IMG/VR virus record: IMGVR_UViG_3300025909_000005 | DNA: 64,000 nucleotides | Source of the DNA: a virus | Taxonomy: Duplodnaviria > Caudoviricetes | Direction: 5' to 3' (one strand) | Shown here: piece after piece, positions 3,825-31,945 of the stretch | Layout: the number at the start of each line of letters is the position of its first letter | Position numbering within the stretch: position 1 is the first letter of the stretch | The notes under the pieces: model-generated | The model's input: only the letters and a program-made list of their open reading frames with translations | Told to the model about the DNA's origin: nothing | The model's database searches: none | Program-made: the position numbers and the translations under genes

Positions 3825-4679
3825 ATGCTGCAAATCGGTCAAGCAAACGAAGTCAAGTTCAACGTCAACGTGAGCGGCACCTCCACGACTCCCTCTGTCA
3901 AGCTCATCATCGGTGCTGGCCAGACAGAGCTTGGTTTCAAGGCCGAACCAGTCCTGAATGAACCGAACCGTTGGTTCTCTGAGGTCAAGATCCCTGAGAA
4001 CTTCCAGCCAGGTTCCTACGACTTCCGAGTCGAGGTCCTCCTGAACAATCGCCTCTTCGTACCTGTCAAGAACAAGGTCATGATCGAGAGCCCGACGCCT
4101 GCCGCCGCCACTGAGGAGCAGATCCCTGCGAAGCCAGCAACTCCAACGCAAACGCCAGATCAGACCCACGAGTGGGAAGGTGAAGGCGGTGCACTGCCAG
4201 CTACCAAGGAAATTCCGAAGCCACTGCCACCAGAGCACGTCAATCCACCGACCACGCCCGCTCCGAAGCAGAGCCTGCTCAAGACCTTTGAGAAGGCCGA
4301 CAAGGTCGTCATTCCAGATCCTCGCCGTCTTGACAAGGTGAAGTTCAACACACCATACGCTGAGACCGGTCAAGATGGTTTCCAGCAGCGCCCAGAGCCG
4401 ACTTTCAATGGGCGCAAGACGTCTGATGGTAACGTCAAGCCACCAAAGAAGAAGTACAGCGTCAAGACACCGCTGCCAAAGCCAGGCGTAACACAGACGA
4501 CACCTCTGCCACAGAAGATCAACATGTTGAAGTCTGTGACTCAGGAATCCGCAGCGAAGTTTGACAAGGACCTCGTTGAATCTGGCACGTACGAATCTCC
4601 AGTTCGCGCCACCACATCCATCAATATCACACCAAAGATTCCTGTGACCCTTAAGAAGGGCGAGGTAGTATACGAATGA
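3825..4679 (+). CDS. hypothetical late protein, Pro-rich C-terminal part
   Basis: TAAATA at 3797-3802 and GGAG SD upstream; globular N-terminus then P/K/T-rich region. Confidence 0.6.
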   Translation: MLQIGQANEVKFNVNVSGTSTTPSVKLIIGAGQTELGFKAEPVLNEPNRWFSEVKIPENFQPGSYDFRVEVLLNNRLFVPVKNKVMIESPTPAAATEEQIPAKPATPTQTPDQTHEWEGEGGALPATKEIPKPLPPEHVNPPTTPAPKQSLLKTFEKADKVVIPDPRRLDKVKFNTPYAETGQDGFQQRPEPTFNGRKTSDGNVKPPKKKYSVKTPLPKPGVTQTTPLPQKINMLKSVTQESAAKFDKDLVESGTYESPVRATTSINITPKIPVTLKKGEVVYE

Positions 4680-4825
4680 AGACCTATAGCGACCACGTTG
4701 TAACCAAGGAAGAGCTCAACGCCTTCAAGAAAGAGCAAGAAGACACCAACTACACCCTGAAGGGAATGCTGCTTGCGTCCTTCGTGGTCAATGTCGTTCT
4801 CTCAATCGCGCTCTACCTGCACTGA
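4676..4825 (+). CDS. small single-TM protein (49 aa)
   Basis: ATGA overlap; MKTYSDHVVTKEELNAFKKEQEDTNYTLKGMLLASFVVNVVLSIALYLH; below ORF-track cutoff. Confidence 0.55.
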   Translation: MKTYSDHVVTKEELNAFKKEQEDTNYTLKGMLLASFVVNVVLSIALYLH

Positions 4826-4840
4826 GCTGCACCGGCGACT

Positions 4841-4846
4841 TATAAT
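4841..4846 (+). promoter_or_regulatory. -10 box TATAAT, 6 nt before ATG 4853 (leaderless)
   Basis: TATAAT-cgccgt-ATG, no SD. Confidence 0.55.
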
Positions 4847-4852
4847 CGCCGT

Positions 4853-5170
4853 ATGCGCAAGCTCCTCTTCTATACCCTCCTCCTGCCGATCACCCTCATC
4901 ATGGTGGCCTATGAGCTTCTGCTCTGGCCGATCACGGTGATCCTTTGCCTGCGCGAGGTGCTCTACGCCCTCAGCTCCAGGTTTGAGCACTGGGCCTACA
5001 GGGTGCCGAAGGAGTACTTCATCAACTCGCCGTACAAGCGGACCCTCCGCCAGATCTTTGAAGATTCCTGGTCTGGAGTGAGTTGGGGCATCCTCAATAA
5101 CCGCACCCACTCGGACTACGTTCGAAACGGTGGTGATGCACGAAAGTTGACGCAGAGCGACATTCTTTGA
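4853..5170 (+). CDS. small membrane protein
   Basis: Hydrophobic N-terminal 35 aa. Confidence 0.55.
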   Translation: MRKLLFYTLLLPITLIMVAYELLLWPITVILCLREVLYALSSRFEHWAYRVPKEYFINSPYKRTLRQIFEDSWSGVSWGILNNRTHSDYVRNGGDARKLTQSDIL

Positions 5171-5195
5171 CACGTCTCGCCAGACGTGATATAAT
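5167..5195 (+). promoter_or_regulatory. consensus sigma70 promoter TTGACA-N17-TATAAT
   Basis: Perfect consensus with extended TG; ATG 5202 follows after 6 nt. Confidence 0.85.
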
Positions 5196-5201
5196 GGGCT
5201 C

Positions 5202-5618
5202 ATGAAACACCCTCAAGCCCACATCATCGAGGCGTACGCAGACACCGCGTACCTCTTCCCCTCGCTCGCAGCCCGCGCGTTGTGGGTGGAAAGCAAGCAC
5301 TTCCCCGGCGTCTGGGATCGTACTCACATCGAGTACGTGATCACCCATCCTGAGGGGAACTACGCCATCGGCGAGCGCCCCGCGTCGAAGGAGAAGCCTG
5401 TTCAGCTCAAGCCTGGGCAGACCGTCTACATCAGCGTGCCGTCCGTCGGCAACTTCGTCTTCAACCCTGACGAGTGGAAGCTCATGTCGACGATGTCGCG
5501 TGATCAGCTTCTCATGAAGATTGAGCACGACTTCGGCGGTGACTCGTACTTCGACCACGACCACGCCGAAATCACCGCTGACTACATCCTCCATCGTTTC
5601 CTGAAGGACTCGAAGTGA
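5202..5618 (+). CDS. hypothetical early protein coupled to RNA ligase
   Basis: Starts at predicted TSS; GTGA overlap with ligase. Confidence 0.65.
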   Translation: MKHPQAHIIEAYADTAYLFPSLAARALWVESKHFPGVWDRTHIEYVITHPEGNYAIGERPASKEKPVQLKPGQTVYISVPSVGNFVFNPDEWKLMSTMSRDQLLMKIEHDFGGDSYFDHDHAEITADYILHRFLKDSK

Positions 5619-7474: not shown

Positions 7475-8122
7475 ATGCGCAAACGTGAACTGATGGGTGA
7501 GAGCGAAGACCTCGCAATCCCCTACGAGATGATCACCCTTCAGTCCCTCGGAGCCTACATGCTCTTCGGCGGGATTGACCAGCAGACGTCCTATGAGACC
7601 TGCGAGTTCATCATCAAGGCGAACCTGATTCAGCAGTCGCGCAACCCACTCAACCTGATCATCAACTCAGAGGGTGGGCACGTCACAGATGGCTTCGCCA
7701 TCATCGACGTCATGGAAACCTCCCGGCTTCCAGTTCAGACCATCGGTACTGGCATGATCGCCTCGATGGCCCTTCTCATTCTCTCAGCTGGCTCCAAGGG
7801 GAACCGCGTGATCACGAAGAACACCGAGATCATGGCCCACCAGTGGTACGGCGGCATGGAAGGAAAGTTCCATGAACTCATGGCCGTAACGAACGAGCAC
7901 CTTCGACTGAAGGAAACGTTCATCACTCACTTCAAGCGCCACTCGAAGATGAACGAGAAGCAGATCGTTGACATCCTCTTCTCGCCATCGGATCGCTGGC
8001 TCACTCCTCAGGAGTGCAAGAAGTACGGCCTCTGCGACAAGGTGACTGAGTTCATTGAGATTCAAGACCCAGTCAAGCCAAAGCGCGTCAGGACTTCCCG
8101 GCGTAGCGCGCCTGGAGCATGA
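7475..8122 (+). CDS. clpP: ClpP-family serine protease
   Basis: INSEGG, catalytic ASM, MAHQ, DRWLTPQE..YGLCD. Confidence 0.9.
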   Translation: MRKRELMGESEDLAIPYEMITLQSLGAYMLFGGIDQQTSYETCEFIIKANLIQQSRNPLNLIINSEGGHVTDGFAIIDVMETSRLPVQTIGTGMIASMALLILSAGSKGNRVITKNTEIMAHQWYGGMEGKFHELMAVTNEHLRLKETFITHFKRHSKMNEKQIVDILFSPSDRWLTPQECKKYGLCDKVTEFIEIQDPVKPKRVRTSRRSAPGA

Positions 8123-8836: not shown

Positions 8837-9622
8837 ATGGGAAGAAAACTCGCTTTGGCAAAACAGAAGTACCCGCAACCCGTCAACCCTGAAGGAACCC
8901 ACGCCATTCACCTCAAGTTCCGCCCAACTCCAAAGAGCGAATCCCAACGCTTCTACATGGAGTCTCTGCAAAACGCAAAGTTGACGATCGGTACTGGCCC
9001 AGCCGGTTCAGGCAAATCGTTCCTCTCGATGGCAGTCGCCGTCGAAAAGCTTCTCAACGGTGAAGTATCGAAGGTCGTGATCACGCGCCCTATCGTAGAA
9101 GCCGGCGAATCCCTTGGCTTCCTGCCAGGCACCTTCGAAGAGAAGATCTCACCCTACCTCCTCCCTCTCCTTGATGCACTGAATGATCTCGTTGGTCCGA
9201 CGATGGCGAAGAAGCTCCTCGACGGTGGCAAGATTGAATTTGCGCCTCTCGCGTACATGCGCGGTCGCACGTTCAACAACAGCTACTGCATCTTGGACGA
9301 AGCGCAGAACACGACCGTCGAGCAGATGAAGCTGTTCGTCACGCGTATCGGCGAGTACTCGCAGTTCGCTGTCAACGGTGACGCATCACAGACCGACCTC
9401 CGTGGAGTGCCTGAGAATGGCCTCGACTGGGTGGCTCGCAAACTGCGTGGCTGCTCCTCTGAGATCAACGTGATTGAGTTCACGAACTCGGACGTCGTTC
9501 GTTCGGCAATCGTGAAGACCATTCTGCATCACCTCGAATCTCCTGAGCCGCGTGCCCAAGAGAAACGCCGTGGTGGCACTCGTCATGAGTTCACCGCTCC
9601 CGCAGTTCTGCAATCAGCCTAA
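8837..9622 (+). CDS. phoH: PhoH-family ATPase
   Basis: GPAGSGKS Walker A, RPIVEAGESLGFLPG, RGRTFNN, ILDEAQN, GDASQTDL. Confidence 0.95.
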   Translation: MGRKLALAKQKYPQPVNPEGTHAIHLKFRPTPKSESQRFYMESLQNAKLTIGTGPAGSGKSFLSMAVAVEKLLNGEVSKVVITRPIVEAGESLGFLPGTFEEKISPYLLPLLDALNDLVGPTMAKKLLDGGKIEFAPLAYMRGRTFNNSYCILDEAQNTTVEQMKLFVTRIGEYSQFAVNGDASQTDLRGVPENGLDWVARKLRGCSSEINVIEFTNSDVVRSAIVKTILHHLESPEPRAQEKRRGGTRHEFTAPAVLQSA

Positions 9623-11336: not shown

Positions 11337-11366
11337 TTGTACATTTTCACCACGTGGAACTATAAT
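11337..11366 (+). promoter_or_regulatory. early promoter TTGTAC-N18-TATAAT
   Basis: Intergenic; opens the early accessory region. Confidence 0.7.
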
Positions 11367-12570: not shown

Positions 12571-12599
12571 GTGTACACCAACCGCCAAAGCGTTATAAT
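12571..12599 (+). promoter_or_regulatory. early promoter GTGTAC-N17-TATAAT
   Basis: Followed by CA-rich leader GATTCATCATCAACAAAC. Confidence 0.75.
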
Positions 12600-13710: not shown

Positions 13711-14202
13711 ATGAAGCACCTCATCGCCCTCGCCCTCGTGGCCACCTCTGGCCTCGCCGCTGCGTCGACGCAAGACCCGACTGTTTCTCTCTCCACCGGC
13801 TACATCGCCGGCGTGACGAGGGGCGCGGTCTCGTACGACTTCAACGAACACCACTTCAACCGCTACTTCTCGGTCGTCCCGGAAGCAACGCTCGGCTACA
13901 TGCGCGACAACGCCACCGACAACCACAGCTGGGAAGTCAACATCAATCCCCAGTTCCGCGGCTACGTGACACCGAACCTGTACGCTGAACTCGGCGTCGG
14001 CATCGCCTACTTCAACAACCCGGCCTTCGCCTCGCCGTCGATCAACACGCGGTTCCAGTTCTCGGACATCGCAGGCGTCGGCTACAAGCTCTCGTCCAAG
14101 ACGGCCGTCGGTGTGCGCTACGAGCACTTCAGCAACGCTGACATCCGCAAGCCGAACCCTGGCGTGCAGGCACTCGAGCTGATCGTCACGAAGAAGTTCT
14201 GA
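13711..14202 (+). CDS. pagL: PagL-like lipid A 3-O-deacylase (outer-membrane beta-barrel)
   Basis: Signal peptide MKHLIALALVATSGLAAA; FQFSDIAGVG; catalytic RYEHFSNADIRKPNPG; C-terminal Phe. Confidence 0.85.
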   Translation: MKHLIALALVATSGLAAASTQDPTVSLSTGYIAGVTRGAVSYDFNEHHFNRYFSVVPEATLGYMRDNATDNHSWEVNINPQFRGYVTPNLYAELGVGIAYFNNPAFASPSINTRFQFSDIAGVGYKLSSKTAVGVRYEHFSNADIRKPNPGVQALELIVTKKF

Positions 14203-14742: not shown

Positions 14743-14770
14743 TGTACTTTCGGATTGAGCGTGGTATAAT
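14742..14770 (+). promoter_or_regulatory. early promoter GTGTAC-N17-TATAAT
   Basis: Extended TG; AAGGA SD downstream. Confidence 0.75.
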
Positions 14771-14797
14771 CGACTCCTCACCTAAGGAAAAGTACGA

Positions 14798-16258
14798 ATG
14801 AACCTCGCGACCCTCTGCCACGACGAAGCAACTTCCACCTGGTACGCCACCTTCAATGGTGAGACGGTGATGAGCTCAGTCGGTGGCGAGTCATCACGGA
14901 AGTACATCATCGAGCGCATCACGCAAGGCAAGTCTGCCAAGTGTCGCAAGCTCGGCATCGTCGGCTTCGACAACGTGCGCGAAGCCTTCGCACCCAACCC
15001 CCTCGCCAAGTCCGTCAGCCAAGCGTACGTTGAGCCTGTGAAGGCGAACAACGAGCTCTCCGTGCAGGAGCGCTACGACCTCCTCGACGAGTGTGTCGAA
15101 ATCGTGCTGCAAGGCCACGTGACCTCGCTCATCATCACCGGCCTCGGTGGTCTGGGCAAGACGTACCACACGAAGGCGAAGATCAAGGAACACAACCTCG
15201 TCTCGGTCGATGAAGCCAAGCTCATCGAGGAGACCCTCTCCGAAGAAGACCGCGACATCATCGAGCGCATCGAGCTGAAGATGGCCCAGTGCAAGTACAT
15301 CGCCGAGGCCTTCTACAAGACGCACGACAGGGACGCCAAGCCGCTGAAGAAGGCGAAGTCGAAGGAGGACGATGACGAACCCGAAGAGGAGCTCGAACTT
15401 GAGCTGAACTTCGGCAAGGTTAGCTACGACCTCCAGAAGTCCGACGACATCAAGGACCGCCGTTGTGCCGGCCAGTACTACCCGGGCACCCACGCCTACC
15501 GCTTCAACCTCACGCTGGCAAAGGAGAACCTCGACGACTTCATCGAGATCGTCGTGCCTCATGAGATCGCCCACCAAATCGACCACATCCTGCACCCGAA
15601 GGAGTCCGCGAAGGCGCCTCATGGCAAGAACTGGCAGACTGTCATGACGAAGTGCTTCAAGATTCCGGGCGACCGCTACCACACATACGATATTTCCACG
15701 GTCAAGAATACGCCTGAGCTGAAGGGCGACTACCACTACATGAAAGGCTACTCGTCGGCGAAGGGTCTCTACCGCACGCTGTACGAGAACCGGAAGAAGC
15801 TGGTAGTGTTCGACGACTGCGATGCGGCGTGGAAGAACGAAGTCGGCGCGAACATCCTCAAGGCCGCGCTTGACACCGACGAAGACCGCTGGGTCACGTG
15901 GAACGTCGAGCAGAACATGAACGACGATCTGCCGACGAGCTTCCTGTTCGAAGGCCGAGTCATCTTCATCTCTAACGTCCGGTCGCAGGACTTCCCTCAG
16001 CCGCTTGTCTCACGCGCCCTCCGCGCTGACATCGAGCTCACGACCGAGGAGACTTTCGAACGCATGCGTCAGCTCCTCTCGAGCGAGAGCTTCGCACCCG
16101 GCATCTCGATGGAGGTCAAGCAAATGGGCTACGACTTCCTCTACGAGAACCGAGACCGGGCGGCGGAGCTGACGACTCGCTCGCTGCTCAACGTCATCAA
16201 GGTCGCCAACACAGGCTCGAAGCTGTGGAAGCGGATCGCTCTCTCGAACATTCAATAA
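14798..16258 (+). CDS. AAA+ ATPase with inserted SprT-like Zn metalloprotease domain
   Basis: Walker A ITGLGGLGKT; SprT FIEIVVPHEIAH, APHGKNW, RYH; then KGYSSAKGLY and Walker B VVFDDCD. Confidence 0.85.
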   Translation: MNLATLCHDEATSTWYATFNGETVMSSVGGESSRKYIIERITQGKSAKCRKLGIVGFDNVREAFAPNPLAKSVSQAYVEPVKANNELSVQERYDLLDECVEIVLQGHVTSLIITGLGGLGKTYHTKAKIKEHNLVSVDEAKLIEETLSEEDRDIIERIELKMAQCKYIAEAFYKTHDRDAKPLKKAKSKEDDDEPEEELELELNFGKVSYDLQKSDDIKDRRCAGQYYPGTHAYRFNLTLAKENLDDFIEIVVPHEIAHQIDHILHPKESAKAPHGKNWQTVMTKCFKIPGDRYHTYDISTVKNTPELKGDYHYMKGYSSAKGLYRTLYENRKKLVVFDDCDAAWKNEVGANILKAALDTDEDRWVTWNVEQNMNDDLPTSFLFEGRVIFISNVRSQDFPQPLVSRALRADIELTTEETFERMRQLLSSESFAPGISMEVKQMGYDFLYENRDRAAELTTRSLLNVIKVANTGSKLWKRIALSNIQ

Positions 16259-16264
16259 GGTCAC

Positions 16265-16423
16265 ATGGAAGGTTTCTACACCATCATTGTCGGCATCTGC
16301 GCTGTCCTTGGCACGATGGCGTGGGGTCCGGCAGGCATCCTCTTCGGAGCTCTCATTGGCGTGGTCCTCTGCACGCTGTGCTGGTGTCTGCTCTGGTGGC
16401 TCATCTACTTTCGAAAGCACTGA
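16265..16423 (+). CDS. small membrane protein (52 aa)
   Basis: TAAGG SD; MEGFYTIIVGICAVLGTMAWGPAGILFGALIGVVLCTLCWCLLWWLIYFRKH. Confidence 0.55.
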   Translation: MEGFYTIIVGICAVLGTMAWGPAGILFGALIGVVLCTLCWCLLWWLIYFRKH

Positions 16424-16591
16424 ATGGAACCAATCAGCTTGCCTGCCAATCCCGCTGACGGCCAAGTCGCGGTAGTTGATGGGAAGAAGTACGTGTGGCG
16501 CGACCGTTACACGTCGTGGTTCTTCATCGATGAGCCACCCGAACTGCCGGTTCCTCCGTTGCTTCGAATCCCGTTACCAAGAGAGGTGTAA
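16424..16591 (+). CDS. small hypothetical protein (55 aa)
   Basis: Abuts previous stop; MEPISLPANPADGQVAVVDGKKYVW... Confidence 0.5.
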   Translation: MEPISLPANPADGQVAVVDGKKYVWRDRYTSWFFIDEPPELPVPPLLRIPLPREV

Positions 16592-16605: not shown

Positions 16606-16634
16606 GTGTACATCTGGAGAGATGTGCTTATAAT
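16606..16634 (+). promoter_or_regulatory. early promoter GTGTAC-N17-TATAAT
   Basis: Leader GAATTCATCAACCAAAC similar to that at 12600. Confidence 0.75.
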
Positions 16635-17718: not shown

Positions 17719-17746
17719 TGTACACCTGCGCGCGTCTTGATATAAT
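17718..17746 (+). promoter_or_regulatory. early promoter GTGTAC-N17-TATAAT
   Basis: Extended TG; leader GGATTCATCGCAAC then GGAG SD. Confidence 0.75.
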
Positions 17747-29101: not shown

Positions 29102-31945
29102 ATGACACAAGCCAACTACGTAGGATCCTACTACGATTGGGACACGGATGCGGTGATGATCTGGGAACGCGATGAGAATGGTGTTCGCTCGGTCAAGCCC
29201 TACTACGCTCCCTACTATTTCTACGTCCCTGATGAAGACGGTGAGTACACCGCGATCGACCGCCGCAAGCTGAAGAAGCTGGTGTTCGACAACAAGGACG
29301 AGTTCAACCAAGCCACGAAGCAGTACGATCGCCGTGATCGCTACGAGAGCGACATCGCCCCGATGTTTCGCGTGCTCATGGACGAGTACTACGATCTCCC
29401 AACCCCCGTCGTCCACTACGCGTTCCTCGACATTGAGGTCGACTACAACTCGAAGCTCGGCTTCTCATCACCTGAGAACCCATACGCGCCCATCAACGCC
29501 ATCACGATCTACCAGTCGTGGTCGAAGCGCTACATCACGTACGCGGTCCCGCCGAAGAAGTGGAAGGGTGGTGAGACGTTCAGTGCCGACATCGCGAAGC
29601 TCTGGGAAGAGCACAAGCTTGGCTTCAAGCCAGAGGTCGTGCTGTGTGAAGACGAGGCGCAGCTCCTAACGTACATGATCCGAGACATTCAAGACTCGGA
29701 CATCATCTCAGGCTGGAACTCAGAGTTCTTCGACCTTCCGTACATCATGAAGCGGCTCGAGATCGTGCTGCCGAAGCTGATGCACAAGATGAACTTCATT
29801 GGCTGCCGCCCTGCTCGCATGTCAACGGTTGAGAGGTTTGGTTCCCCGCAGATCGTCTACGCGCTCAATGGCCGTACCCACCTCGACTACCTGGACCTCT
29901 TCAAGAAGTTCACGTTCGAAGGTCGTACGTCCTACTCCCTCGCGAACATCGCAGGTGACGAGCTCGATATCCCGAAGCTGCACTACGATGGCACCCTCGA
30001 GCAGCTCTACAACCGTGACTTTGCCCACTTCGTGGCGTACAACGCCCGAGACGTTGAAGTTCTGGTGAAGCTCGACGACAAGTTCAAGTTCATCGCCCTC
30101 GTGAACCAGATGGCCCACGAGAACACCGTTCCGTTTGCAGCAATGCTGGGCACGGTGCGCTACGTTGAAACGGGCATCACGAATCGTGCCCACTACGTTC
30201 ACGGTCTCCGCGTTCCAGACAAGATGATTCTGAACGACGGCATTCCTGTTGAAGGTGCCCTTGTCCTCTCACCGAAGGTTGGTCTCCACGACTGGCTCGG
30301 TTCGGTCGACATCAACTCGCTGTACCCATCCGTCATTCGAGCACTCAACATCTCGCCTGAGATGTTCCGTGGTCAGTTCGAACGTGAAGGTGACGCGTGG
30401 CGCGGCATCATGGAGATGTCTGAAGAGACGTTCAACTTCGTCTCTCGTGACGGTGAACCGCTGTCCATGACGGGCGAAGAGTGGTGGATGTGGCTCATCG
30501 AGCGCAAGTACGTCATCACCGCGTTCGGCACCGTCTTCGATCAGAGCCAGGGTCTCGGCATCGTCCCAGAAGCTATCGCCTTCTGGTACTCGGAACGTAA
30601 GCGTCTTCAAGCAGAAAAGAAGAAGTACCAGGTCCTGCTCAAGGAGTGTACCGACGACGTAGAGAAGTCTCGTCTGAAGAAGCTCGTCGAGCACTACGAC
30701 CTGCTCCAGCTCACGAAGAAGATTCAGCTGAACTCCACCTACGGTGCTCTGCTGTCTCCACACTTCCGCCTGGGTCGCAAGGAAATGGGTGCGTCTGTTA
30801 CAGCTTGCGGTCGTCAGATCACGACGAACATGATGCAGTGGATTGGCGAGCTTGTCACAGGCCAGCCAACGAAGATCATTCGCACCATGCTCGTTGACCC
30901 GTACAACCCGAAAGCGGGCTACCGGTCAACAATCGACGGCAAGGAGATCACGCAGGAGCAACGGTACGAGGAAGTCGTGGTGAAGGGTGGGGCTCGAGCT
31001 CTCGCCATCATCAAGCCGAAGAAGACTGCGGGCTCAGCGCACGACGATGAAGGTCAACACAACGACCACAACGGTGTTCTCTACGAGTCCAACAACCCGG
31101 TCATTCTGCTCTCTGACACTGACTCATGCTACTTCAAGACGCAGGCACCCACGAAGCAGGAGGCGATCGAGGTCGCTGATGCTGTGGCCGAGGAGGTGAA
31201 CGACATGTTCCCTGCTGCCATGCGAAAGTGGTTCAACTGCCAGCCAGGCCATGATGACCTCATCAAGGCAGGCCGTGAAATCGTTGGCTCACGTGGCCTC
31301 TTCCTGAACGCGAAGAAGAAGTACACCATCAAGGTGATGAACCTCGATGGCTTCGACATCGAGGGCGGCAAGCTCAAGACCGTCGGTTCGGAGATGAAGA
31401 AGGCCGATACACCGAAGGTCATTCAAGACTTCCTGAAGACGATGATGGACATCATCCTAGACGGTGGCACGTACGCTGACGTCGAGAAGTATGTCAATGA
31501 GCAGCGAGGAGTTCTCATCACGAAGATCGAGAACCCAGTCGCACTCGGTACCGCGAAGTCAATCAACAACCTCGACTCGCTCTACGCCGAATGGCAGAGG
31601 ACTGAGAAGATCGGCAAGGGAAAGGTGACACTCCCAGGCCACGTACGAGCCGCCATCAACTACAACGAGATGGTGCAGAAGTTTAACACGGGTGAGAAGC
31701 TCATGCGAGCTGGTGACAAGGGTCTCGTGTTCTACCTGAAGCCGAACGACTTTAAGCTCAAGTCGATCGCCTTCCCCGCGGACATCGACCGCTTCCCTGA
31801 CTGGTTCACGGAGAACTTCCGGCTGGACAAGCCACTGACAGAGCAGAAGATGATTGACAACAAGCTTGAAGGAACGTTTGAGGCACTCAATTGGGAGATC
31901 CCTACGCCACAGAAGACGTTCGTTAAGAAGATGCTGGAGTTTTAA
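29102..31945 (+). CDS. family B DNA polymerase (T4 gp43-like)
   Basis: ExoI LDIEVD, ExoII GWNSEFFDLPYI, ExoIII YNARDV, DINSLYPS, KIQLNSTYG, SDTDS. Confidence 0.97.
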   Translation: MTQANYVGSYYDWDTDAVMIWERDENGVRSVKPYYAPYYFYVPDEDGEYTAIDRRKLKKLVFDNKDEFNQATKQYDRRDRYESDIAPMFRVLMDEYYDLPTPVVHYAFLDIEVDYNSKLGFSSPENPYAPINAITIYQSWSKRYITYAVPPKKWKGGETFSADIAKLWEEHKLGFKPEVVLCEDEAQLLTYMIRDIQDSDIISGWNSEFFDLPYIMKRLEIVLPKLMHKMNFIGCRPARMSTVERFGSPQIVYALNGRTHLDYLDLFKKFTFEGRTSYSLANIAGDELDIPKLHYDGTLEQLYNRDFAHFVAYNARDVEVLVKLDDKFKFIALVNQMAHENTVPFAAMLGTVRYVETGITNRAHYVHGLRVPDKMILNDGIPVEGALVLSPKVGLHDWLGSVDINSLYPSVIRALNISPEMFRGQFEREGDAWRGIMEMSEETFNFVSRDGEPLSMTGEEWWMWLIERKYVITAFGTVFDQSQGLGIVPEAIAFWYSERKRLQAEKKKYQVLLKECTDDVEKSRLKKLVEHYDLLQLTKKIQLNSTYGALLSPHFRLGRKEMGASVTACGRQITTNMMQWIGELVTGQPTKIIRTMLVDPYNPKAGYRSTIDGKEITQEQRYEEVVVKGGARALAIIKPKKTAGSAHDDEGQHNDHNGVLYESNNPVILLSDTDSCYFKTQAPTKQEAIEVADAVAEEVNDMFPAAMRKWFNCQPGHDDLIKAGREIVGSRGLFLNAKKKYTIKVMNLDGFDIEGGKLKTVGSEMKKADTPKVIQDFLKTMMDIILDGGTYADVEKYVNEQRGVLITKIENPVALGTAKSINNLDSLYAEWQRTEKIGKGKVTLPGHVRAAINYNEMVQKFNTGEKLMRAGDKGLVFYLKPNDFKLKSIAFPADIDRFPDWFTENFRLDKPLTEQKMIDNKLEGTFEALNWEIPTPQKTFVKKMLEF

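Follow-up and report, generated by a model that had tools for sequence, protein, structure and literature searches.

A SprT-type metalloprotease core nested within the AAA+ ATPase domain of a NrdC.10-family jumbo-phage protein

Introduction

Can a protease be housed inside the fold of an ATPase, and if so, might the two activities be coupled? This question is raised by positions 14798-16258 (+) of a 64,000-nucleotide stretch of DNA from IMG/VR virus record IMGVR_UViG_3300025909_000005 (the whole stretch is called the window below), whose source is a rhizosphere jumbo phage of ~377 kb, a distant relative of Ralstonia phage RsoM2USA. A first-pass annotation, made from the sequence alone, had placed a SprT metalloprotease between the Walker A motif and the Walker B motif of an AAA+ ATPase. 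Pfam, alignments to insert-less relatives, and AlphaFold all confirm this arrangement: a one-chain AAA+ ATPase contains, within its ATP-binding domain, the whole catalytic core of a SprT zinc metalloprotease, which appears to be active.

The gene and its assembly

The gene is a single unbroken ORF of 486 aa (14798-16258, +); its product is an AAA+ ATPase of the NrdC.10 family in which a SprT protease core is nested. A ribosome-binding site, AAGGAA, can be read from the sequence at 14784-14789 (+), 8 nt 5' of the ATG. This site and N-terminal residues conserved in 46 homologues together support the start codon. The 64-kb window contains no homologue of NrdC.11.

One explanation for such a gene is an artefact: the reads may have been mis-assembled, the contig may be chimeric, or the gene may be decaying after a selfish insertion. 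We give this explanation practically no weight. Other contigs carry the gene at 99% identity (P0002), and it was assembled independently from other rhizosphere metagenomes (e.g., the X2 contig, which covers 14850-15783 with 2 differences). These contigs and assemblies, together with 46 diverged full-length homologues and a cultured phage genome, refute it, and both the continuous ORF and the confident fold throughout the protein also speak against it.

The upstream region

A promoter-like element, TGTACT-N16-TATAAT, was found by pattern match and reading of the sequence at 14743-14770 (+), with an extended -10 TG at 14762-14763; the distance from the end of its TATAAT to the ATG is 28 nt. The wider pattern TGTAC-N15-18-TATAAT has five matches, every one on the + strand (11338, 12572, 14743, 16607, and 17719). 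They cluster at 11.3-17.7 kb, where approximately zero would be expected (none occurred in 100 shuffles). The recurring motif came from a pattern search; the element at 14743 escaped a generic sigma-70 scan because its -35 hexamer is TGTACT. The gene had earlier been credited with a strong early promoter; this is only partly supported, by the putative promoter element 5' of the gene, whose strength and early timing are conjectural.

One metatranscriptome library has contigs that span 14744-15040 and 15046-15256 at 99-100% identity, which may reflect DNA carry-over. We rejected these contigs as proof of transcription because they begin 5' of the expected start site and their strand and ends are invisible. 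That the rest of the gene lacks coverage in that run carries no meaning.

The ATPase and its insert

The protein begins with an N-terminal domain (aa 1-57, 14798-14968, +) of three strands, two helices, and one strand, modelled at pLDDT 90-96. This domain is common to insert-less family members, and its W15 and G21 are conserved family-wide. The first piece of the AAA+ core (15062-15190, +) follows, recognised by invariant residues and modelled secondary structure, and consists of alpha0, beta1, Walker A (G-L-G-G-L-G-K-T, aa 115-122, 15140-15163, +), and alpha1.

The second piece of the core (15725-16039, +) is likewise defined by modelled secondary structure and by residues invariant in 119 sequences. 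It contains the K-G-Y-S-S-A-K-G loop after beta2 (aa 316-323, 15743-15766, +), Walker B (aa 335-342, 15800-15823, +), a hairpin-like element (aa 364-384, +), sensor-1 N393 (15974-15976, +), and an Arg-finger candidate, R406 (16013-16015, +), the last two assigned from position in the model and invariance. The helical lid of the AAA+ module (aa 415-486, 16040-16255, +) has four helices at pLDDT 95-98 and includes the invariant R461 (16178-16180, +), whose position in the model makes it a sensor-2 candidate. AAA+ matches reach residue 486, and neither Pfam nor AlphaFold places anything beyond the lid, so the AAA+ module has no protease domain on its C-terminal side. The motif positions proposed at first pass hold, with Walker A at 15140-15163, HEIAH at 15560-15574, and the VVFDDCD of Walker B (aa 336-342) at 15803-15823.

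Between the two pieces lies an insert of ~178 aa (aa 132-309, 15191-15724, +) in the alpha1-beta2 connection, delimited by alignments A1 and A4 and by motif spacing. Compared with insert-less relatives, including RB14 NrdC.10, the protein has ~170-180 extra residues between the Walker A helix and beta2. The Walker A-Walker B spacing is thus 220 residues here vs 40-102 in 180 insert-less members (motif-scored); it is 185 in P0122, a more distant insert-bearing relative. AlphaFold, which had been suggested as a check on domain insertion, shows the ATPase folding across the insert (full model pLDDT 90.6, pTM 0.78).

The full model matches many solved AAA+ structures (Z 10-12.7) over ~200 residues within aa 88-486. 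CbbQ (Z 12.7) and NorQ (12.6) are followed by dynein, ClpA, Lon, and FtsH (Z 10.6 for the FtsH and Lon ATPase domains), and the initiator and loader proteins Cdc6/Orc1, DnaA, and RFC score similarly to CbbQ and NorQ (Z 10.5-12.7). With Foldseek, HslU chains (nested I domain included) and Lon rank first for the whole model. The Pfam AAA profile (PF00004) reaches only aa 112-160 and misses its gathering score (16.5 vs 21.2 bits) because the insert splits the ATPase domain. A profile of the 46 homologues, searched against PDB sequences, reached neither a SprT nor an AAA+ structure; its matches to the myosin P-loop (E 5e-4 and weaker) were rejected as motif coincidence. An ESM Atlas feature search returned insert-less viral AAA clusters only, with scores below 0.9.

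The ATPase belongs with T4 NrdC.10, i.e., PHROG 1250, an uncharacterised family of T4-like and jumbo phages. The PHROG 1250 match comes in two stretches (E 1.5e-41; the best pairs aa 309-481 with positions 133-321 of the 327-position profile), and tblastn against RB14 nrdC.10 likewise gives two pieces flanking the insert. Its N-terminal domain recurs in this family, to whose members it is 27-41% identical, and so do Walker A, the loop K-G-[YF]-S-x-A-K-G, a Walker B of the DDxD form, sensor 1, the candidate Arg finger, and the helical lid. Ordinary NrdC.10 members differ from it in length (~290-350 aa) and in the spacing of their Walker motifs, which are 40-100 residues apart.

The protease core

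Within the insert, a SprT-type metalloprotease fold occupies aa ~149-303 (15242-15706, +), as indicated by Pfam, NCBIfam, an alignment to Salmonella SprT, and a structure match to SPRTN. Its elements are an N-terminal helix, a two-stranded sheet, the active-site helix, and C-terminal helices. Pfam PF10263 matches aa 212-294 over positions 23-107 of 108 (45.1 bits vs a gathering score of 25.6, E 9.7e-12). The NCBIfam SprT profile NF003421 matches over positions 46-124 of 170 (E 2.5e-19), at 69.5 bits vs the 175 of its equivalog cut-off, which is not reached. Against aa 33-109 of Salmonella SprT, the insert has 36% identity (E 6e-16), and an ESM Atlas search linked aa 147-385 to bacterial 'Protein SprT'.

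Structure comparison gives the same picture. Modelled by itself (pLDDT 85), the insert best matches human SPRTN (6mdx; Z 9.3, rmsd 2.9, 109 aligned residues), followed by minigluzincins (Z 8.5-8.9) and Wss1 (Z 6.6-6.8). Foldseek on the insert produced weak matches (E 0.1-0.5).

The zinc-binding and catalytic motif HExxH is present as HEIAH (aa 255-259, with H255, E256, and H259; 15560-15574, +). Downstream, HGKNW (15620-15634, +) supplies a candidate third zinc ligand, H275, as well as W279, both invariant, and aligns with HGKEW of Salmonella SprT. Bacterial SprT proteins (NF003421; PF10263 plus PF17283) have the same protease core with HExxH and HGKxW. Unlike them, the insert has no sequence counterpart of the initial ~30-45 profile positions or of any part of the zinc ribbon, is embedded in another domain, and has an extra K/E-rich loop. 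The absence of the C-terminal zinc ribbon is clear from the Salmonella SprT alignment, which ends at aa 109 of 151 with no Cys pairs beyond. The earlier description of a nearly complete SprT domain therefore applies to the protease core, which is complete, and fails for the missing zinc ribbon.

The K/E-rich loop, also noted at first pass, is real: a Lys-rich and then acidic low-complexity loop lies within the SprT fold at aa ~177-206 (15326-15415, +). It is the sole low-confidence part of the insert (pLDDT 62-73), and its length differs among homologues. A comparable loop occurs at the same site in the insert-less relatives P0054, P0056, and P0123.

Conservation, distribution and origin of the insert

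In the 46 insert-bearing sequences (53-65% identity), the ATPase residues G115, G117, G120, K121, T122, D339, D340, D342, N393, R406, and R461 are invariant, as are the SprT residues H255, E256, H259, H275, and W279. P0122, whose insert is only 27% identical, keeps the SprT motifs too, bringing the number of sequences to 47. Across the 119 sequences of the wider family, invariance extends to G115, G117, G120, K121, K316, G317, K322, R326, E330, D339, D340, D342, R364, W368, N393, R406, and R461. This pattern of conservation indicates that both catalytic centres are under constraint.

The insert is rare in the family, being found in two 50%-identity clusters vs 1590 representative proteins that match at E <= 1e-10. 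Homologues with and without it had been proposed as a test of whether it is sporadic; with ~47 insert-bearing relatives, it proves to be fixed in a clade and not a one-off. In an ATPase-only tree (insert columns removed), its presence maps as one change, the window's clade has a support of 100, and P0122 is sister to that clade with a support of 86. These relationships fit a single origin of the insert. As for possible donors, a search of proteins 30-266 aa long for short stand-alone relatives of the insert gave no match at E <= 1e-3.

Among phage genomes, tblastn matched 1294 records, essentially all over aa ~290-481 only (T4-type NrdC.10), and a megablast search with the gene, covering 50,697 phage records, gave no match. 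RsoM2USA is the only phage record matched by tblastn over the full length and the only cultured carrier. It has one copy of the NrdC.10 family, at one place in the record: gp429 (AVH85357.1), labelled 'hypothetical protein', which has the same nested architecture at 34% identity over the full length (SprT Pfam E 1.1e-9) and a shorter insert than the window protein. The same architecture is seen at 59% identity in WP_407303452.1 (P0011), from an Acinetobacter sp. contig, where it is labelled 'SprT-like domain-containing protein'.

The first-pass annotation knew of no described protein with this architecture, and we also found no account of SprT within AAA+ in the main text of published papers. 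The RsoM2USA paper mentions neither a SprT protein nor an ATPase. PMC7824862 describes SprT-like peptidases in jumbo phages of the same group and proposes that they cut host proteins.

Relation to known AAA+ systems

The closest architectural precedent is HslU (ClpY), in which an I domain of ~130-150 aa is nested in the AAA+ large subdomain, again between Walker A and Walker B. The claim of novelty is therefore sound for the nested domain being a protease, and not for nesting at this place. The HslU I domain has no catalytic role, and its insertion point falls between pore loop 1 and beta3. Like the SprT insert, it emerges at the N-terminal ends of neighbouring strands; unlike it, it is not itself a protease, so HslU needs the separate peptidase HslV, and the SprT insert precedes beta2.

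This precedent also suggests that the SprT insert could be a non-catalytic recognition or structural domain, with its HExxH serving as a structural metal site. HslU shows that a nested non-catalytic domain at this fold edge can recognise substrates (PMC7468587). However, none of the 47 sequences, even where insert identity falls to 27%, deviates at the catalytic Glu E256 or at any of the three His ligands, and a purely structural metal site needs no Glu, so the invariant E256 counts against this explanation. We consider it very unlikely.

FtsH (an AAA+ ATPase fused to an M41 zinc metalloprotease with HExxH) and Lon are, like the form we propose for the window protein, single-chain ATP-dependent proteases. 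They differ in having the protease domain C-terminal to the ATPase and in a ring of its own, in peptidase family (M41 or S16), and in a Walker B that ends in DE.

SPRTN/Wss1 and p97/Cdc48 also combine a SprT-fold zinc protease with an AAA+ ATPase, but as separate proteins, whereas the window protein is one chain with the protease nested and the DNA-binding modules absent. The SPRTN/Wss1 systems are ubiquitin- or SUMO-recruited and are activated by DNA through the ZBD and basic regions. In them, p97 unfolds crosslinked proteins for SPRTN (PMC9127365), and Wss1 is assisted by Cdc48 (PMC10308373).

Proposed mechanism and alternatives

We think it probable, if by a small measure, that the protein is a NrdC.10-type AAA+ ATPase whose captured SprT core acts as an ATP-coupled in-cis protease. 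An ancestor would have taken up a proteobacterial-type SprT catalytic core, without its zinc ribbon, in the alpha1-beta2 surface connection. The AAA+ module is probably an oligomeric ring, for which a two-copy complex prediction (aa 86-486 plus ATP) was uninformative, its score of 0.00 vs a mark of 0.42 being no evidence either way on oligomerisation. A protein target would be bound or remodelled via the N-domain and the conserved loops following beta2, and the in-cis SprT domains would cut it. These domains leave the same sheet edge as the HslU I domain, beside the strand bearing the pore-loop-like K-G-[YF]; from topology alone, we infer where the SprT cleft would lie with respect to the ring pore. 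Such a protein would be a functionally fused version of p97/Cdc48-SPRTN/Wss1 and a topological variant of FtsH, the fused AAA+ zinc protease.

Alternatively, the AAA+ module may be an ATP-dependent switch or scaffold which toggles the SprT domain or places it on a partner, with no substrate threading. A Walker B of the form hhhhDD, in place of hhhhDE, is seen more typically in slow, switch-like AAA+ proteins (e.g., DnaA), and the second acidic residue of V-V-F-D-D (aa 336-340) is Asp, not Glu, in 119 of 119 family sequences. This argues for a switch and against an ATP-coupled protease. So does the loop after beta2: its consensus, K-G-[YF]-[ST]-[ST]-A-K-G, departs from the aromatic-hydrophobic-Gly motif of canonical pore loops. 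The best structure matches also include remodellers of the MoxR type (CbbQ, NorQ) alongside Cdc6/Orc1, DnaA, and RFC. However, every one of the 119 sequences has Y or F at position 318, beside the invariant K316 and G317, at the site of pore loop 1, which is located between Walker A and Walker B (PMC9569914). HslU and Lon come first in Foldseek, and the family has tandem two-ATPase relatives (813-972 aa) that recall type II unfoldases. On balance, we regard a nucleotide-gated protease as fairly unlikely.

A further alternative, put forward in the first-pass annotation and which we rate as unlikely, is that the AAA+ module binds or tracks DNA while the SprT domain removes DNA-bound or crosslinked proteins of the host nucleoid or defences. 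SPRTN and Wss1 set a precedent, since both depend on DNA for proteolysis and act together with an AAA+ protein (PMC5127644, PMC9127365). The invariant K316, K322, R326, R364, and W368 would suit a nucleic-acid ligand equally well, which again weighs against an ATP-coupled protease; we infer that they are in elements that line the channels of nucleic-acid-translocating AAA+ proteins. Some family members are labelled 'clamp loader' in databases, and RFC and other clamp loaders are among the fold matches, but these labels are unsupported annotations. The insert also lacks the zinc ribbon or ZBD that confers DNA binding on SprT and SPRTN, Pfam and NCBIfam detect no DNA-binding domain, the insert carries a long acidic loop, and PADLOC defence profiles had no match.

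The absence from the insert of the modules by which DNA activates SPRTN and Wss1 bears on the preferred reading as well, and counts against it, since a promiscuous SprT core would need some other restraint.

Significance

To our knowledge, only a handful of kinds of ATP-dependent protease exist (Clp, HslUV, Lon, FtsH, and the proteasome), and in each the peptidase either forms a ring apart from the ATPase or follows it as a C-terminal domain. Nesting the protease in the fold of the ATPase would couple the two in a novel manner. The window protein would also offer, in nature, a 'cis' version of the AAA+-SprT partnership whose trans form serves eukaryotes in repairing DNA-protein crosslinks. RsoM2USA is a cultured carrier, so the question is directly testable.

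More tentatively, and with rather more doubt than confidence, we suggest that the protein may represent a new class of single-chain ATP-dependent metalloprotease, with SprT domains crowning the entry face of the ring, by which a clade of jumbo phages would pull out and degrade particular host proteins soon after infection, possibly DNA-bound defence or nucleoid proteins. The protease's substrate would point to what the whole NrdC.10 family acts on. If the reading as a new class is true, it would provide the first functional handle on the NrdC.10 family, which over a thousand sequenced T4-like phages possess.

A protease domain nested in an AAA+ ATPase

A single ORF at 14798-16258 (+), with a ribosome-binding site (AAGGAA) 8 nt 5' of its ATG, encodes 486 residues. 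It contains Walker A (G-L-G-G-L-G-K-T, aa 115-122, nt 15140-15163), HEIAH (aa 255-259, nt 15560-15574) and Walker B (V-V-F-D-D-C-D, aa 336-342, nt 15803-15823), which places all three motifs of the first-pass annotation where it had put them, in one ORF. Residues 212-294 match the SprT-like domain (Pfam PF10263, 45.1 bits vs a gathering score of 25.6, E 9.7e-12), and the Pfam AAA profile gives a sub-threshold match only, at aa 112-160. PHROGs family 1250, annotated as function unknown, is matched in two separate stretches (E 1.5e-41), the larger being aa 309-481. On the profile evidence alone, these matches therefore point to a single ATPase family interrupted by a protease domain.

Searched by tblastn against 50,697 phage records, the window protein matched 1294, essentially all over aa ~290-481 only. 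Beneath them lie nrdC.10 genes of T4-like phages, to which the label 'thioredoxin' or 'clamp loader' has often been wrongly given. RB14 NrdC.10 (322 aa) can be aligned to either side of a gap of ~170-180 residues, which opens directly behind the Walker A helix and closes at the strand preceding the conserved K-G-Y-S-S-A-K-G loop.

AlphaFold, using a 119-row alignment, gave a confident full-length model (mean pLDDT 90.6, pTM 0.78) in which only the linker at aa 58-80 and a K/E-rich loop are weak. In an exhaustive structural comparison, ~200 residues of this model between aa 88 and 486 align to solved AAA+ proteins, so the predicted ATPase fold, helical lid included, closes across the insert (aa 132-309), and the earlier reading that the ATPase resumes after it holds. 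The top matches were CbbQ (MoxR type, Z 12.7) and NorQ (Z 12.6), followed at Z 10.4-11.8 by the dynein and midasin AAA modules, ClpA, Cdc6/Orc1, NtrC-type activators, proteasome Rpt, FtsH, Lon and HslU; Foldseek ranked HslU chains with the nested I domain first, then Lon.

The modelled secondary structure runs from beta1 (aa 110-114) and the P-loop through alpha1 (aa 121-131), the insert, beta2 (aa 312-316) and its loop, alpha2 (aa 321-330), beta3 with Walker B (aa 335-339) and alpha3 to a hairpin-like strand pair (aa 364-367 and 381-384), beta4 (aa 387-391) with N393, alpha4 ending at R406, beta5 and a four-helix lid carrying R461. Read by position in the model, N393, R406 and R461 are candidates for sensor 1, the Arg finger and sensor 2, and all three are invariant in 119/119 family members. 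The strand pair preceding beta4 is similar to the pre-sensor-1 hairpin seen in the HslU/ClpX/Lon, MoxR and dynein group; assignment to this clade is tentative. There are two departures from a textbook unfoldase: Walker B is DD in every family member, and the post-beta2 loop is K-G-[YF]-[ST]-[ST]-A-K-G, its aromatic residue invariant, rather than the canonical aromatic-hydrophobic-Gly. We consider it possible but rather unlikely that the AAA+ module is of a switch type, with a non-threading mechanism.

The NCBIfam model of proteobacterial SprT matches the insert (E 2.5e-19), with a score of 69.5 bits that is far under the equivalog cut-off of 175 and covers only profile positions 46-124 of 170. 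By BLASTP, the insert is 36% identical to residues 33-109 of Salmonella SprT (E 6e-16), with HExxH and HGKxW aligned, and the match ends where the SprT zinc ribbon would start. Modelled alone (pLDDT 85), its best structural match is the human SPRTN protease domain (6mdx; Z 9.3, rmsd 2.9 A, 109 residues), followed by archaeal minigluzincins (Z 8.5-8.9) and Wss1 (Z 6.6-6.8); Foldseek alone gave weak rows for SPRTN, minigluzincins and Wss1. Because the SPRTN alignment begins within the long helix at aa 149-176, aa ~149-303 make up a single SprT protease fold, with the K/E-rich loop (aa ~177-206) as an excursion inside; the loop had already been assigned to the domain from sequence. The domain had also been called nearly complete; its catalytic core is complete, and the DNA-binding appendages of bacterial SprT and SPRTN are absent. 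The first-pass annotation proposed action on DNA-bound proteins, and we regard this as improbable: invariant basic residues around the putative channel speak for it, but it is weakened by the lack of a zinc ribbon and by the acidic loop in the insert.

HslU has a domain nested between Walker A and Walker B, FtsH is a fusion of AAA+ and zinc protease, and p97-SPRTN is a case of cooperation between an AAA+ ATPase and a SprT protease. Lon subfamilies, too, have variable insertions between the two Walker motifs (PMC9569914). Homologues of the window protein in public databases are unrecognised (labelled 'hypothetical' or 'SprT-like domain-containing'), and we found no description of a SprT-in-AAA+ architecture, across a corpus of 8.4 million papers, in the literature on SprT with phage, AAA+ or jumbo phage, on NrdC.10 or on the Ralstonia jumbo phage RsoM2USA, in agreement with the first reading. 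As far as we can tell, a SprT protease nested inside an AAA+ core is a new combination.

Homologues and origin of the insert

A word-indexed search of 5.8 billion proteins found 46 non-redundant full-length homologues (461-505 aa, 51-62% identical to the window protein), all with PF10263 and several on contigs of 350-375 kb, as well as hundreds of insert-less relatives of ~320 aa. One homologue is in RefSeq (WP_407303452.1, 'SprT-like domain-containing protein', on an Acinetobacter sp. contig). When 1.84 billion representatives of 50%-identity clusters were searched exhaustively with a profile, 1590 proteins matched at E <= 1e-10; only two clusters among the best 150 of these bear the insert, the window's own and that of P0122, a related protein which groups with RsoM2USA. 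From Walker A to Walker B, insert-less members have 40-102 residues, P0122 has 185 and the window's clade has ~220. This comparison of relatives with and without the insert, suggested at first pass, defines an insert-bearing clade of 46 homologues in which the catalytic residues of the two modules are all invariant, and P0122 also keeps the SprT motifs, at 27% insert identity. A non-catalytic insert is very unlikely, and we give almost no credence to the nested architecture being an artefact.

We also inferred a maximum-likelihood tree from 89 family members after taking out the insert columns. In it, the window's clade has a support of 100, P0122 is its sister (86) and RsoM2USA joins at the next node (90). 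Insert presence needs a single change on this ATPase-only tree, a pattern that fits one capture event, with deeper nodes not strongly supported. RsoM2USA has one copy of the family only; the insert-bearing form (gp429) replaces the ordinary gene there and is not a supplement to it. The nearest insert-less relatives (P0054, P0056 and P0123, on contigs of 325-356 kb) have a Lys-rich/poly-acidic low-complexity loop at the exact SprT insertion site, so additions are tolerated at the alpha1-beta2 junction in this branch. Their loop resembles the K/E-rich loop inside the window insert and may be a remnant or a parallel addition.

Three other NrdC.10-family relatives, P0141 (813 aa), P0218 (874 aa) and P0269 (972 aa), are longer by a factor of two to three. 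Each has 4-5 matched stretches and two or more P-loop regions; from sequence, they look like tandem ATPase modules.

Genomic context and transcription

The window DNA polymerase (29102-31945) shares 47% identity with the RsoM2USA enzyme and ~30% with those of other T4-related jumbo phages (XacN1, Xoo-sp13, SCTP-2, Atu_ph07 and GAP32). The window protein is recorded on a 376.6-kb contig, and window DNA is present in rhizosphere metagenomes of several studies. Upstream of the SprT-AAA gene, all on the + strand, are a phage-encoded ClpP (7475-8122, Pfam E 4.3e-36), PhoH (8837-9622, Pfam E 3.6e-73) and, two genes upstream, a PagL-like lipid A 3-O-deacylase/outer-membrane beta-barrel (13711-14202, Pfam PagL E 1.1e-20). 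A 349.7-kb contig with the homologue P0004 repeats this arrangement, with ClpP, PhoH and PagL followed by one small gene and the SprT-AAA gene. For ClpP and PhoH, this concerns position and order only and implies no functional tie.

RsoM2USA_428 (3962-5275, -, in the RsoM2USA record) is an annotated 437-aa ORF antisense to nearly all of gp429, and its window counterpart is a 280-aa antisense ORF (14894-15736, -); GC-rich coding sequence probably gave rise to both as annotation artefacts. Immediately 3' of the SprT-AAA gene, at 16407-16584, one rhizosphere contig (run X3) has 12 other letters for 176 nt, which takes away most of a small ORF (16424-16591), a case of strain-level indel variation among small genes.

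The first-pass annotation gave the gene a strong early promoter. A promoter-like element, TGTACT-N16-TATAAT with an extended -10 TG (14743-14770, +), does end 28 nt before the ATG, but 'early' and 'strong' are still guesses. Further TGTAC(A/T)-N16/17-TATAAT copies occur at 11338-11366, 12572-12599, 16607-16634 and 17719-17746, making five, all +, at 11.3-17.7 kb (6.4 kb of small genes), where approximately none are expected by chance. They are probably the phage's class of host-polymerase promoters, and their clustering, with one before the SprT-AAA gene, supports a putative separate transcription unit for it inside the small-gene cluster. Contigs from one rhizosphere metatranscriptome library match 14744-15256, and with it the first 460 nt (5' third) of the gene, at 99-100% identity, which is suggestive of expression in situ and not conclusive; such contigs cannot prove transcription.

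Proposed mechanism

Model and alignments together show that one chain contains two folded units, an AAA+ module and a SprT core, both with intact catalytic residues conserved clade-wide. We lean towards ATP-coupled proteolysis, in a general sense, as the activity. FtsH shows that an AAA+ module and a HExxH protease are able to work in one chain, although its topology and peptidase family differ. In the model topology, the insert exits the fold at the N-terminal end of beta2, an edge strand that bears the pore-loop-like K-G-[YF] motif at its C-terminal end and adjoins beta3, where the HslU I domain emerges. The HslU I domain serves substrate recognition (PMC7468587), and an analogous placement would put the SprT domains on one axial side of a ring.

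Functionally, the nearest counterpart is found in eukaryotes, where p97/Cdc48 serves SPRTN/Wss1 by unfolding or extracting proteins (PMC9127365, PMC10308373); in the window protein both activities would be fused. A comparative jumbo-phage survey proposed that the SprT-like peptidases found here and there among these phages cleave host proteins (PMC7824862); the nested form is not described in its main text. In the window protein, the SprT domains would cleave a bound protein in a manner coupled to the binding or hydrolysis of ATP by the AAA+ module, which is probably oligomeric.
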